This document shows, piece by piece, positions 37,575-47,351 of a stretch of 64,000 nt of DNA. The notes beneath the pieces are model-generated. The model did no database searches. It saw only the letters and a program-made list of their open reading frames with translations, and was not told the DNA's origin. Location: positions 32 through 64,031 of the forward strand of contig JAUSFV010000006.1 in the NCBI GenBank assembly GCA_030649305.1, in the 5' to 3' direction. Positions within the stretch are counted from its first letter, which is position 1; every line of letters begins with the position of its first letter. The translations under genes and the position numbers were made by a program. Source of the DNA: a bacterium (lineage in GTDB: Bacteria > Patescibacteriota > Minisyncoccia > Sungbacterales > GWA2-42-14).

Positions 37575-38432
37575 ATGAATATTCCAGCAGAGTTTAGAAA
37601 CTTCTCACCATCTTCACTACTTGAAACACCCGAACTCCAAAACTTTATCAAAAATCGTCAAGCCGGACTGAATGAGATGCCTCGTGACATTCTTGAGAAA
37701 ATGGCGGGAATCATCCGCAGTTCCACCGTGCTCACGGGCATCACGTTTGATGGCGGGGTTATCGCGGGCGCCGATGGGCAGTCAACCGATACACGGGGAC
37801 TTGAAATCGCTGATGACCAAGCCCCGAAATTGCACCAGGTGGCGCCACATACCGTTATCGGCATGACGGGCTCGTCCGCCCAATGCGATGAACTAGCGCG
37901 AATCATTGAAGAGGTGCTACGCGTTGATGAAGCAATCAATCAATTCGCAGACACCCCCCTTACCACAGAAGGCACCGTAGGAAGAGTGTCTATGGTAGTC
38001 AGACAAAATCTTCCTCTCGTCGCCTACTATGGCCTTATCGCCATCCCCCTCCTTACCACCATCAACAAGGAAACCGGGGAAGGAAAGGTGTATCATTACG
38101 ATGCCGTGGGAGGATATTCTGACGCCACCGAAGGATTTTGGGCTGATGGTTGCGGGGGCCCGAATGCGAAAGGAATATTCCGAGGAAACACAAAAGATAT
38201 TGCGAAGGGACTTTCAAAAGACGCCGCCATCATGCTTACCGTACACGCGCTCGCAAAGACATGCCATGTCAATGCCGGATGCGGAGGTAAGCTCCTCGTA
38301 AAAGTCATCACCAAGCAAGACGGCATCGTTGATGTATCTCAGGACCGAATCGCGGAAATCTGCAAAGAACTCGGTCCGCGGGTGATCGGAACATATGGCC
38401 TTGGATACCCCTACGCAACCCCCAGGGAATAG
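37575..38432 (+). CDS. prcB: 20S proteasome beta subunit (PrcB-like, with ~49-aa propeptide)
   Basis: Mature N-terminus TVLTGITFDGGVIAGADGQ (Thr1 Ntn-hydrolase). C-terminal …DGIVDVSQDRIAEICKEL resembles actinobacterial PrcB …DGAVDVPESRIAEL. Confidence 0.75.
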   Translation: MNIPAEFRNFSPSSLLETPELQNFIKNRQAGLNEMPRDILEKMAGIIRSSTVLTGITFDGGVIAGADGQSTDTRGLEIADDQAPKLHQVAPHTVIGMTGSSAQCDELARIIEEVLRVDEAINQFADTPLTTEGTVGRVSMVVRQNLPLVAYYGLIAIPLLTTINKETGEGKVYHYDAVGGYSDATEGFWADGCGGPNAKGIFRGNTKDIAKGLSKDAAIMLTVHALAKTCHVNAGCGGKLLVKVITKQDGIVDVSQDRIAEICKELGPRVIGTYGLGYPYATPRE

Positions 38433-38444
38433 GAGGAAAAAATC

Positions 38445-39236
38445 ATGAGACTGTTCCCGGAAAGCGACTATCAATCAAAATCGAACCGAGACAGGTTCGA
38501 ATCGCTCAGAGGCATAATCGAAAATCAACCGCCCCTTGTAGCACTTGCGTATAAAGAAGGACTTTTATTCATGAATTTCGGCACACGACATGATTTCCGC
38601 CGAATTGCTCCGCTCAACGAAGGGAATACCTTAGTATTCGGAGGCGTTGGCAACCGAGGCGATATAAAGGATCTCCACACGAATGGATGGGTAAACCCGG
38701 CAATGCGCCGCCTCTATGCGTGCCTCCCCAGCAATTCAAAAGAGATATCGGGGCGCGTCATTAGCGACGGAATCGCGGATCTTATGCGTTCACGATTTAG
38801 CTTTGTATTCTCGGGACCTTTCATCGCCGAAATTTTCATTGCAGAAGTCGGAGAATCAAATAACGTTATCTACCATATCCAGACCGACGGAAACACATGT
38901 ACCCACGATGATTTCCTCGCGTTGGGAGCCAGAAACTACTGCGCCAATAATCCCCTCCGTTTAAGAGTCGTGAGAAGCGCTGTGGACTCAAGTGTGGGGA
39001 CACAAATCCAAGAAGCAAAGGAAAAAATTGAACTGTGCGCGATTGAACAATACCTTGAAGAGAATCCGCCAAACCCCTCTCAGAGCCTTGAAGAGGCGCT
39101 GAAACTCGGTGATGTTTTGAAAGAATTCTATGTCCGAGAAATCAGCGGAGAGGAAGATCCGGAAAAGACAAAGATGCCTGTTAGCTACAACATTCTCGAA
39201 AGAGGAAAGGGGCTCTTTGTCCATTCAGACAAATAA
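38445..39236 (+). CDS. prcA: 20S proteasome alpha subunit (PrcA-like)
   Basis: …RDRFESLRGIIENQPPLVALAYKEGLLFMNFG… aligns with mycobacterial PrcA …[32 protein letters not shown]…. Confidence 0.75.
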   Translation: MRLFPESDYQSKSNRDRFESLRGIIENQPPLVALAYKEGLLFMNFGTRHDFRRIAPLNEGNTLVFGGVGNRGDIKDLHTNGWVNPAMRRLYACLPSNSKEISGRVISDGIADLMRSRFSFVFSGPFIAEIFIAEVGESNNVIYHIQTDGNTCTHDDFLALGARNYCANNPLRLRVVRSAVDSSVGTQIQEAKEKIELCAIEQYLEENPPNPSQSLEEALKLGDVLKEFYVREISGEEDPEKTKMPVSYNILERGKGLFVHSDK

Positions 39237-45257: not shown

Positions 45258-45371
45258 ATTTCCTCCCCTTTCTTTATATGTATATATGTAAAGCAACTTA
45301 TTTCATGCTATCACGGCCACTCCAATGAAAAAAGCCCACGACCTCGGTCGGGGGCTTTTGGATGTAATGAG

Positions 45372-47351
45372 TTATAGGTAATGTCCGACCGAAACTGTCT
45401 CAACTTTCTTATCCTCCCCTTCTCGGGGAAGAATACGAACATTCACGATTCGGCCCTTCTGCTTGCCGATAACACTGGCCCACTCTTGGGGGTTCGTAGT
45501 GTTAGGCAAGTCTTCGTTCTCTTGGTATTCTTTAATCGTCGCGTCACGAAAATCAGAGAATGTCAGCCCCTTCTTGCCTCCCGCAATCAATCGTTTGACC
45601 GCGCTTTTCTTTGCGCGAGTCATAATGGACTCAATGATAGCGCCGGACATAAAATGCCGGAAGTGCATGGTTTCCTGTTTCCCATCCGCATAGGTAAGTT
45701 CGACAAATCTGCTCCATTTTTTAGAATCAGGGGTAAGCCCCCAAATTTCAATCGCGGTCCGCTGAATAAAATATTTTGCCATATCCTCCAAAAGAGGGGT
45801 GCCGTTTGTATCACGACGAATAGGAAACTTCATGATTTTGAGGTCAACATCATTTCGCGCATCATTCGTGGGGTCGCAATCGTAAAACTTACGCGGATGT
45901 CCGTTACGGTCTGCCGGAATATAGTTTCCCTCTGTATCATAGAATTTCGGATTCACATAATCAGAACCAACAAGACAAAATGGAAGTTCCGGCACGCAAT
46001 AAATCTTGAGAATTTCCTGAATGCCGCGAAAATCAGGACGGTCAATTTTAATTTTTACGTCAAATCGTCCGGGCCGCAGAACCGCAGGGTCAATCAAATC
46101 CTGCCGGTTGGATGCACCAATCACGATGACGTTTTTCAAACCCTCAACACCATCAATCTCCGCCAAAAACTGCGGTACGATGGTTGACTCAACGTCCGAA
46201 GAAATTCCCGAACCGCGCGTCCGAAACAAACTGTCCATTTCGTCAAAGAAAATAACGACGGGAGAGCCGTCTCCTGCCTTCTCACGCGCCCGCGTAAAAA
46301 TATCACGAATTTTACGCTCGGTTTCACCAACCCACTTCGTAAGAAGTTCCGGACCTTTGATATTAATAAAGTAACCCCGAACGGATTGTCCCGTTTTTGC
46401 GGCAATCTGTTCGGCCAGAGAATTCGCAACCGCCTTTGCGATAAGTGTTTTACCGCATCCCGGAGGACCATACAACAGTACGCCCTTGGGCGGTGCCAGT
46501 TTGTGTTCCTTGAAATGTTCCGCGTAGAGATAGGGAAGTTCAAGCGCGTCGCGAATTTCTTCAATCTGTGCCCCAAGTCCGCCGATGTGCGCGTAGGTAA
46601 TATCCGGCACCTCCTCCAGGAGGAGGTCTTCGGTATCACTCTTTGGAAGCTTCTCAAGTACGAGACCTGAGCGCGCGTCAAATAACAGATGGTCGCCCTC
46701 TTTCAGAACGACGTCTTTCAAAGAATCCGCAATCTCAACAACCCGCTCCTCATCCTGACGCACTTCAATCTGCACACGCCCATCATTCAGGCGGCTTTTC
46801 ATCGTGACTACTTCGCCCTGCCCGTCAAAGCCAAGCGCCTCAACCACATTGAAGGCCTCATTCAAAATAAGTTCCTGGCCCCTCCGAAGAGACCTGCCGT
46901 CAAGAGAAGGATGCAGATTAACTTTCAACTTTCTACCCGCCGCATAAATAACGGCTGTGCCGTCTTCATTCAACAAAGAAAAAATACCGTAAGAATTAGG
47001 AGGCGCTGAAAGCTTTTCCACTATCTCGCGGAGTTCCACGATCTCTTTTTTCACTTCCTGCAAGATCTCGGTGAGTTTCTGGTTTTGAGCAAAAGCCGTT
47101 ATATTTTGTTCAAGCAACGGCTTTTCCAATCTTGCTAATTCTTGCTCCTGCGCCACAATCTGTTCGCGAATCCGCTCGGCCTTTTCCAAAGTATCGCCCC
47201 GGGCATCCGCGCGTTTATGCAGTCTTCTTAATTCCGCGTGAAGTTCTTGAAGTCGTATATGAATCGCGTGGAGCTTCGCGCCAAACGCGTCAAGCGATTG
47301 ATTGCGCGGATCTTCATTCGGCATACGCCACCTCATTTCGTCTGTCAACAA
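45372..47351 (-). CDS. arc: Proteasome-associated AAA ATPase ARC/Mpa
   Basis: N-terminal coiled coil, OB domains, Walker A [24 protein letters not shown] identical to Mpa; ends …VGHYL, cf. the Mpa C-terminal GQYL docking tail. Probable start at Met 47324 (AGGTGG RBS). Confidence 0.8.
   Translation of the reverse strand: [659 protein letters not shown]

Follow-up and report, generated by a model that had tools for sequence, protein, structure and literature searches.

Pupylation is accepted to occur in Actinobacteria and Nitrospirae, and sporadically in NC10, Armatimonadetes, Verrucomicrobia, Nitrospinae, Firmicutes, Proteobacteria and Planctomycetes (PMC7947786). In the actinobacterium Mycobacterium tuberculosis, the genes of the system lie in the order Mpa-Dop-Pup-PrcB-PrcA-PafA. 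Our literature search found no paper linking pupylation or the 20S proteasome with the Patescibacteria, or candidate phyla radiation (CPR), and database annotations of a "PafA2 family protein" in Sungbacteria already exist. Here we describe a Pup-proteasome locus on a 64,000-nucleotide stretch of contig JAUSFV010000006.1 (GenBank assembly GCA_030649305.1), which we call the window. An initial annotation had read positions 37575-47351 as a complete system, with arc-dop-pup-pafA on one strand, three unknown genes and a convergent prcB-prcA pair. Homologs of all six components are almost certainly present in this CPR genome. From their sequences, we consider it likely that they form a genuine chromosomal Pup-proteasome system of a Sungbacteria-related bacterium, whose components operate together as a degradative pathway.

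The locus resembles its actinobacterial counterpart in many respects. The same six families are present, and Pup has the C-terminal helix and GG[EQ] end. Mpa has the coiled coil, two OB domains, AAA module and YL tail, the beta subunit combines a propeptide with Thr1, Asp17 and Lys33, and the distinction between Dop and PafA is kept. Unlike in Actinobacteria, the 20S genes do not lie between pup and pafA but stand apart as a convergent unit, together with two additional conserved genes. The beta subunit has Cys/Asn/Cys in place of the second triad, the ligase homolog has Gln for His241, and the host of the locus belongs to the CPR. The Dop and PafA homologs are only 26-34% identical to the canonical enzymes, and beta reaches 33% at most. 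Genes for pafBC, bpa or cpa were not seen in the window.

Two other groups of loci offer parallels in single features. Nitrospirota and NC10 (Methylomirabilota) share the GHYL tail of Mpa and a Gly rather than a His after the catalytic Asp of Dop, and several of their Mpa proteins are among the best matches. Their loci nevertheless have the canonical order dop-pup-prcB-prcA-pafA and canonical active sites, and the CPR enzymes branch outside them. The proteasome-less loci of the Corynebacterium type share the order arc-dop-pup-pafA, with pup directly before the ligase gene (PMC3511204). That type has neither the interaction motif nor 20S genes, both of which are present here; the Sungbacteria contig L001 is nearer to the proteasome-less type. 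Judged by its gene families, the locus is homologous to the system of Actinobacteria and Nitrospirota, and differs from it in host, gene order, paralogs, ligase invariants, beta triad and two extra genes.

Components of the locus and their host

We scanned the predicted proteins with Pfam and NCBIfam models, using the curated cut-off of each model, and took coordinates from an open reading frame (ORF) scan, which recovered all nine ORFs of the locus at the positions given below. All six ORFs proposed as components matched the expected families. The description of the system as complete holds at this level of homology, with the reservation that four of the six proteins fall far under the NCBIfam equivalog cut-offs.

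Pup is encoded at 43306..43521 on the minus strand, as a 71-aa protein with the C-terminus ...YVQRGGE. As the initial annotation had predicted, it scores above the curated cut-offs of both PF05639 (76.4 bits, cut-off 27) and TIGR03687 (61.8 bits, cut-off 41.45). Its C-terminal half is nearly identical to the Pups of relatives and to canonical Pup. The end is GGE in the window and in contig L004, and GGQ in contigs L005, L092 and L093. A GGE end had been taken to mean that Dop acts only as a depupylase. This is reasonable for the PupE of the window but does not extend to the clade, where deamidase capacity is still in use, since close relatives encode PupQ.

The Mpa/ARC proteasomal AAA+ ATPase (659 aa, 45372..47351, minus strand) scores 644.5 bits against the equivalog TIGR03689 (cut-off 504.75) and matches M. 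tuberculosis Mpa with an E-value of 1e-159. It consists of a coiled-coil N-terminus, the domains Prot_ATP_ID_OB_N and Prot_ATP_ID_OB_C, an AAA module and a GHYL tail; the HYL terminus noted earlier is indeed there, as ...VGHYL. An insertion at residues ~458-546, between the AAA module and the C-terminal domain, makes this segment ~55 residues longer than in M. tuberculosis Mpa, where residues 459-492 align with it. Over the full length, the protein is 47-51% identical to homologs from Nitrospirota, Rokubacteria and Poribacteria, and 52% identical to that of the CPR relative L005. We compared the Mpa tail of the window with 80 other loci. The window, L005 and L004 have the form GHYL; the tails of Nitrospirota and NC10 read GHYL or GHYF, and those of Actinobacteria GQYL. 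Proteasome-less actinobacteria do not have the docking motif. Since the GHYL docking tail is retained, we argue that this Mpa would feed the 20S particle encoded beside it.

The ATPases of proteasome-less pupylating bacteria lack the proteasome-interaction motif (PMC3511204). No YL tail is present in the ATPases of the Sungbacteria contigs L001, L002 and L003 (Candidatus Sungbacteria GCA_016180435.1 and Logan contigs), and no 20S genes occur within ~10 kb on each side in L001. These contigs carry a still more divergent variant of the locus, at about L001:8574-13606. It comprises a short Mpa-like ATPase of 386-469 aa, a Dop-type gene and a further Pup-ligase paralog (classes A and B below), and a 66-aa ORF ending ...IQEKGE that Pfam does not recognise as Pup. 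PrkA, PrkA, DUF444 and SpoVR genes come next.

The host was placed by marker genes and gene order. Among the best 120 matches to FtsZ, all named ones are Patescibacteria, Parcubacteria or Candidatus Sungbacteria (69-77% identity), and rpsL and fusA motifs were located near the 5' end of the window. A Patescibacteria genome (L091, GCA_018971745.1) contains a gene run of Mfd, Pth, S26 peptidase, HisRS, HIT, S21, YqeY, YbeY, FtsA and FtsZ that is collinear with the window from 61540 down to 52653. The match then jumps to ftsZ at 37389. The gap between ftsA and ftsZ is 133 bp in L091; in the window, a block of ~15.3 kb (37390..52652) lies between the two genes. It contains the Pup-proteasome genes and, by Pfam for the other genes, a tRNA-Arg, HtrA, a membrane protein, a ClpB-like AAA+ protein, a 144-aa ORF and a response regulator. 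With FtsZ relatives and both flanks pointing the same way, the non-actinobacterial host first suspected from the sequence is a Patescibacteria (CPR) bacterium related to Candidatus Sungbacteria.

An independent Logan assembly from another run (L086) is 99.84% identical to the window and covers ftsZ-prcB-prcA-u246-u239-u159 and part of the PafA-type gene; the three u genes are described below. As L086 extends from ftsZ through to the ligase gene, the arrangement is not an assembly artefact of a single metagenome-assembled genome (MAG). The beta protein is also identical to a MAG protein with the locus tag Q7R73_00895. Tetranucleotide usage of the block correlates with that of the rest of the window at r 0.932 (control segments 0.949-0.972), and GC is 0.485 in the block versus 0.468. 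Considering the flank synteny, L086 and the tetranucleotide usage, we regard the block as a resident, well-ameliorated part of the CPR genome; on this evidence it is neither a binning error nor a recent import. The initial annotation had remarked that such systems are usually acquired horizontally. For this locus, composition and phylogeny both speak against Actinobacteria or Nitrospirota as recent donors.

Dop-type and PafA-type enzymes

We compared the two large ORFs with a reference set of 22 Dop and PafA sequences from canonical loci. Residue roles and numbering follow Acidothermus Dop (AcelDop; PMC8599861), and the positions that discriminate Dop from PafA (the loop, the insertion plus Gly at the catalytic Asp, and the alpha-loop) are those in Table 1 of Hecht et al. 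(PMC7947786). In the canonical set, the spacer between the GxExE and NG motifs measures 72-76 residues in Dop and 44-46 in PafA. Both ORFs are members of the Pup_ligase family rather than generic glutamine-synthetase-like ligases, in line with the original reading. Together with their CPR relatives, they fall into three classes, which we call A, B and C.

The Dop-type depupylase homolog (class A, 43608..45257, minus strand) has 549 aa from its ATG, and the ORF reaches a TTG at 45296. It scores 258 bits against PF03136, and 216.2 bits against the Dop model TIGR03688 versus 197 bits against the PafA model; the Dop equivalog cut-off of 492.3 is not reached. Its alignment with Acidothermus Dop (E 6e-45) is full-length; the protein is 31-34% identical to canonical Dop and represents a divergent sister clade. 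The Dop loop that had been suspected in this ORF is present, as a 72-residue spacer with a WD motif (SLWD). The motif Y-V-D-G-A-H has no insertion after the catalytic Asp, the same context as in Nitrospira Dop. Class A also retains the equivalents of E8, E10, R90, Y92, D94, E99, H155, R227 and H241, which are all the Mg and phosphate ligands of PMC8599861. Its closest relatives are on CPR-like contigs and in a Sungbacteria MAG. A profile search of genome contigs with the class A alignment returned, among the matches listed, only canonical Dop loci at 29-35% identity.

The PafA-type Pup-ligase homolog (class C, 41535..43178, minus strand) has 547 aa from a TTG, and its true start may be an ATG nine codons downstream. 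It scores 165 bits against PF03136, and 130 bits against the PafA model TIGR03686 versus 101 bits against TIGR03688; it remains under the PafA equivalog cut-off of 551.3 and likewise misses that of the Dop model. The spacer has 48 residues, the motif Y-W-D-T-G-N-H contains the one-residue insertion and the Gly, and the alpha-loop ...L-S-G-T-S-S-T-A... is of the G-x-S-S form.

A neighbour-joining (NJ) phylogeny with corrected distances separated Dop plus class A from PafA plus classes B and C with 86% bootstrap, which assigns the two paralogs of the window to the Dop and PafA sides. Canonical Dop (90%) and canonical PafA (95%) were each monophyletic to the exclusion of the CPR sequences. In this tree, the Dop-type and PafA-type CPR enzymes both branch outside the sampled Actinobacteria and Nitrospirota clades. 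A first NJ tree, built from BLOSUM distances and rooted at the midpoint, had placed the CPR classes outside both Dop and PafA. We regard that placement as a long-branch artefact, as corrected distances with bootstrap put A with Dop and B and C with PafA.

The third class was recognised from related contigs. In L093 the order is A-pup-B-C, and in L092 and L005 it is arc-A-pup-B-C. The "PafA" of L005 is only ~22% identical to that of the window, while the Dop-type proteins of the two are 67-70% identical. This mismatch is resolved by the third paralog of L092 and L093, of which the window gene is the ortholog (48-49% identity): it belongs to class C, a divergent and CPR-specific class. Class B, which is absent from the whole 64 kb window, has substitutions of its own (G89/R90 to Q/Q(I), HEN to HAN, GD to GN). 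The GGQ relatives L005, L092 and L093 carry class B and the GGE window does not, and it is possible that class B and PupQ processing are linked. The three tandem Pup_ligase genes, accompanied by a Pup ending in GGQ, are found at L093:112-5560 and L092:1793-6698.

A divergent Pup-ligase homolog outside Actinobacteria and Nitrospirae has precedent in the single-copy PafA/Dop homolog of Planctomycetes (Hecht et al. 2020, PMC7947786). The CPR clade differs in having two to three paralogs that sort to the Dop and PafA sides, along with Pup, Mpa and a 20S core.

Class C retains GxExE, R90, Y92, D94, E99 and H155, and at population level also R227. Three of its deviations (H241 to Gln, N225 to Leu and column-352 Arg to Ser) are common to all three class C orthologs. 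Read from these alignments, deviations conserved across the orthologs of three species indicate selection and not decay, and we read the near-identical C-terminal half of Pup and the four synonymous against three non-synonymous differences from L086 in the class C gene in the same way. A fixed loss of the phosphate-binding Arg through the Cys at codon 232 of the window gene is ruled out by the Arg in L086. With Arg at this codon in L086 and in both orthologs (L093_C and L092_C), Cys232 is a strain variant or an error and not a property of the class. The window and L086 differ by 11 single-nucleotide polymorphisms (SNPs), of which seven (four synonymous, three non-synonymous) fall in the class C gene, on 20% of the compared length. 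This cluster could reflect a local recombination tract, relaxed constraint or population heterogeneity. There are no SNPs in prcB and one in prcA.

The 20S core and the genes around it

The 20S beta subunit is encoded at 37575..38432 on the plus strand, as a 285-aa protein with a 50-residue propeptide. Its score against PF00227 (61.5 bits) exceeds the cut-off of 22.4, and that against the equivalog TIGR03690 (81.3 bits) is under the cut-off of 191.9. Aligned to M. tuberculosis PrcB, T51 corresponds to Thr1, D67 to Asp17, K85 to Lys33 and the G of GMTG to Gly47; the Thr1 and Lys33 expected of a catalytic beta subunit are therefore in place. A HMMER scan of 1.84 billion representative proteins returned 181 proteins at E <= 1e-3, only two of which exceed 35% identity: P0122 (45%) and P0123 (39%). 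Thr1, Asp17, Lys33 and Gly47 are kept in all three members of this beta clade, at 39-45% identity. A word-based homology search with beta returned only the query, and two metagenome-contig scans, one with the single beta protein and one with a three-sequence alignment, returned no beta relatives.

The second triad, Ser129, Asp166 and Ser/Thr169, is not found in any of the three clade members. In the yeast beta5 subunit, this triad protonates the Thr1 amine, and the mutation D166N still permits autolysis (Huber et al. 2016, PMC4792962). The CPR subunit is like this mutant in having Asn166 in a beta subunit that is competent at Thr1, Lys33 and Asp17. It differs in that Asn166 is natural, conserved in three species and accompanied by Cys129 and Cys169. 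The altered second triad suggests a modified, possibly slower or redox-sensitive, catalysis, and the 20S core is probably active but catalytically unusual.

P0124, the next-nearest beta relative at 30% identity, has the canonical residues Ser129 and Asp166. Its locus (L094:10001-15143, ENA ERZ27247220, 31% GC) has a different layout again, in which the beta gene is followed by alpha, by an Mpa-like ATPase of 597 aa and by one Pup_ligase homolog. The tail of this ATPase reads ...EEDDKIV, with no YL, and no Pup ORF could be recognised at the locus.

The 20S alpha subunit (263 aa, 38445..39236, plus strand) follows beta and is highly divergent. It scores 17.5 bits against PF00227 (cut-off 22.4) and 30.7 bits against TIGR03691 (cut-off 139). 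The alignment with PrcA reported earlier proved weak but specific. PDB matches below E 1e-3 are only to bacterial 20S alpha subunits, those of Rhodococcus and M. tuberculosis, with E-values of 1e-5 for the single sequence and 3.5e-5 for a three-sequence profile. In contigs L088 and L089, the alpha gene always comes after the beta gene.

At least two of the three genes that had been listed as unknown belong with the 20S genes. On the contig of P0122 (L088, 7.2 kb), homologs of u246 (E 1e-8) and u239 (E 6e-11) come after beta and alpha in convergent orientation, and murB and gtrA flank the group. As the arrangement beta-alpha-u246-u239 recurs in this different genomic context, we assign u246 and u239 to the 20S genes, and they are probably 20S-associated factors for assembly, gating or activation. 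The candidate partner u246 lies at 39323..40063 on the minus strand, where gene callers start at 40063 and the ORF extends to 40132. It has a sub-threshold Pfam match to CLP_protease (E 0.005), and 9 of 11 PDB profile matches are to ClpP at a non-significant E of ~1, the top ones being ClpP1 (E ~0.9). Ser and His are missing at the aligned catalytic positions, and a C-terminal S-R-[FL] is conserved. With no Pfam match in the L088 homolog and no significant PDB match, we rejected a ClpP-like reading of u246 and keep it as a lead only. The second candidate partner, u239 (40084..40803, minus strand), is predicted to be all-helical and has no Pfam, NCBIfam or PDB match. Single-sequence AF2 models gave pLDDT 36 for u246, which is unusable, and 52 for u239. 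The third gene, u159 (40831..41310, minus strand), is an orphan ORF with no Pfam or NCBIfam match; it occurs only in the same-species L086 and is absent from L088.

Promoter-like and terminator-like sites divide the locus. Upstream of prcB, the plus strand has TTGACA-17-TACACT at 37489..37517 (10/12 plus extended TG; a consensus match only). Upstream of u159, the minus strand has TTGACA-17-TACAAT at 41458..41486 (11/12 plus extended TG), the best site in the region. Hairpins resembling intrinsic terminators follow the PafA-type gene (41506..41524, minus strand, 8-bp stem and T-run) and come directly after pup (43230..43258, minus strand, 13-bp stem and T8). Since these sites divide the locus, they suggest three transcription units: arc-dop-pup, which a leaky terminator separates from the ligase gene; u159-u239-u246, of which u159 is the first gene; and prcB-prcA.

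The genes around the locus agree with the earlier description of the context: a tRNA-Arg(CCT), adjoining HtrA-like and ClpB-like genes, a prepilin-type protein and ComEC, and a GC of ~0.485. The tRNA-Arg(CCT) at 47431..47502 (plus strand; ARAGORN and Rfam) is divergent from arc and is a neighbour, not a functional part of the system. The remainder of the insertion between ftsA and ftsZ (47352-52652) resembles a protein-quality-control neighbourhood. It encodes a PDZ-containing HtrA-like protease (47533-48606), a ClpB/ClpA-like double-AAA protein of 804 aa (49065-51479), the first ~80 translated residues of which look membrane-spanning, a hydrophobic protein of 136 aa, an ORF of 144 aa and, at 52087-52476, a stand-alone response-regulator receiver. 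Farther away, positions 16239-18974 encode a 911-aa protein with a prepilin-type N-terminal cleavage/methylation signal and GspG-like similarity confined to its N-terminal ~115 residues, apparently a giant pilin-like protein of a kind known in CPR genomes. In a sister species (L090, FtsZ 90% identical), positions 1-344 are a non-coding stretch of 344 nt upstream of ftsZ with 3 copies of CC(C/A)GTTAGAAAT. No prcB start is found in these 344 nt, after which the contig ends, so that L090 is uninformative on the insertion.

Weighing a single degradative pathway against its alternatives

The reading that we think likely is that the components act together, as follows. Pup would be ligation-ready as made, since it already ends in GGE. 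The Mpa hexamer (45372-47351) would capture Pup through its N-terminal coiled coils, unfold the substrate and, by its GHYL tail, dock on the alpha rings of a 20S particle whose subunits are encoded at 38445-39236 (alpha) and 37575-38432 (beta). Beta is predicted to process itself after the 50-residue propeptide, exposing Thr1, and then to degrade the substrate. The Dop-type class A enzyme (43608-45257) would take Pup off again.

Several observations speak against such a pathway. Four of the six proteins score far below their NCBIfam equivalog cut-offs. Class C has Gln at the position of a Mg/phosphate-ligand His (AcelDop H241) and loses residues that are invariant in the reference set (HEN Glu to Tyr, column-352 Arg to Ser, column-360 Lys to Leu, N225 to Leu), and codon 232 of the window copy, at the phosphate-binding R227 position, encodes Cys. 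Beta positions 129/166/169 are Cys/Asn/Cys and not Ser129/Asp166/Ser169 throughout its clade, and in yeast beta5 D166N drastically lowers chymotrypsin-like activity, with ~60% impairment according to the discussion of that paper (PMC4792962). The alpha subunit is too divergent for mapping the residues of the Mpa-docking pocket. The roles given to u246 and u239 are drawn only from their gene neighbours in two species, and the 20S module of L088 does not adjoin a Pup operon.

This last point leads to the alternative that survives best, and which we consider unlikely: two independent modules may lie side by side by chance. The 20S particle with u246 and u239 (for instance as a ring-shaped activator or chaperone) would then act on untagged substrates, and the arc-dop-pup-ligase genes would serve a non-degradative or Mpa-only role, as in Corynebacterium. 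The beta-alpha-u246-u239 module of L088 is flanked by murB and gtrA, and its 7.2 kb contig carries no Pup genes, but contigs this short cannot establish that the genomes lack them. One sequencing study series yielded both the three members of the beta clade and the operons of GHYL type, which is consistent with co-occurrence. The order arc-dop-pup-ligase is that of proteasome-less loci (PMC3511204) and recurs in L001 with no 20S genes within ~10 kb on each side, and the promoter-like and terminator-like sites do split the locus into separate units. What separates the window from these cases is the docking tail: GHYL is kept in the Mpa of the window, L005 and L004, and missing from the Sungbacteria ATPases.

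We think it rather improbable that class C is not a ligase but a pseudoenzyme, regulator or specialised enzyme, with class A carrying out both ligation and depupylation. Such a division is conceivable, as Hecht et al. found Dop to be convertible to a ligase and obtained a variant, Dop2PafA-alpha-Ac, with both activities (PMC7947786). Class A retains all ligands, whereas class C has lost H241 and other invariants, the window copy has Cys for R227, and its gene holds 7 of the 11 SNPs that distinguish the window from L086. Yet it is class C that carries the features linked to ligase activity in PafA, namely no Dop loop, an insertion plus Gly after the catalytic Asp and a G-x-S-S alpha-loop, and class A has the Dop-type version of each. 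The deviations of class C are moreover conserved across species, and Arg is present at R227 in L086, L093_C and L092_C.

A decaying remnant, in which the 20S genes and/or the ligase gene are non-functional and heading for loss, seems very unlikely. Alpha, beta and class C are extremely divergent, the second triad of beta is altered, and class B has been lost relative to sister lineages. All ORFs are intact, however, and three species at 39-45% identity all retain Thr1, Asp17 and Lys33. Cys129/Asn166/Cys169 is common to the three clade members and is not random damage. Between strains, prcB has no SNPs and prcA one, and the promoter-like and terminator-like architecture is conserved.

That the block comes from another organism, e.g. 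a Nitrospirota, through binning or assembly can be dismissed as extremely improbable: the Mpa tail is of the Nitrospirota/NC10 form GHYL and not the actinobacterial GQYL, and Mpa is about as close to Nitrospirota, Rokubacteria and Poribacteria (47-51%) as to L005 (52%), but both flanks are syntenic with a Patescibacteria genome, L086 crosses the ftsZ-prcB junction, composition fits the contig, and the nearest Dop-type relatives are on CPR-like contigs and in a Sungbacteria MAG.

With one degradative pathway in a CPR bacterium as the likely reading, the system is, from its sequence relationships, a member of a small, deeply divergent lineage of Pup-proteasome systems. More tentatively, CPR bacteria may possess an old Pup-proteasome lineage of their own and not a recent copy from Actinobacteria or Nitrospirota. 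It would combine PafA-type classes B and C with rebuilt phosphate/metal sites, a Cys129/Asn166/Cys169 core that is possibly redox-sensitive, and two new 20S partners, u246 (perhaps a dead ClpP-fold ring) and the helical u239. If true, regulated proteasomal degradation would extend to ultra-small symbiotic bacteria, which would bear on the origin of pupylation.

With a full component set in a CPR bacterium of reduced genome, the host range of the system is wider than was known, and one may ask why ~10 kb should be devoted to regulated proteolysis in an organism that has few genes. Classes A, B and C are natural experiments in how far the active site of PafA and Dop can be rebuilt, and the beta clade is another in whether the second triad (Ser129/Asp166) is dispensable or replaceable. 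The locus also nominates u246 and u239 as new proteasome partners. Finally, the CPR enzymes branch outside the canonical Dop and PafA clades sampled here, which bears on the proposal that pupylation is of actinobacterial origin.

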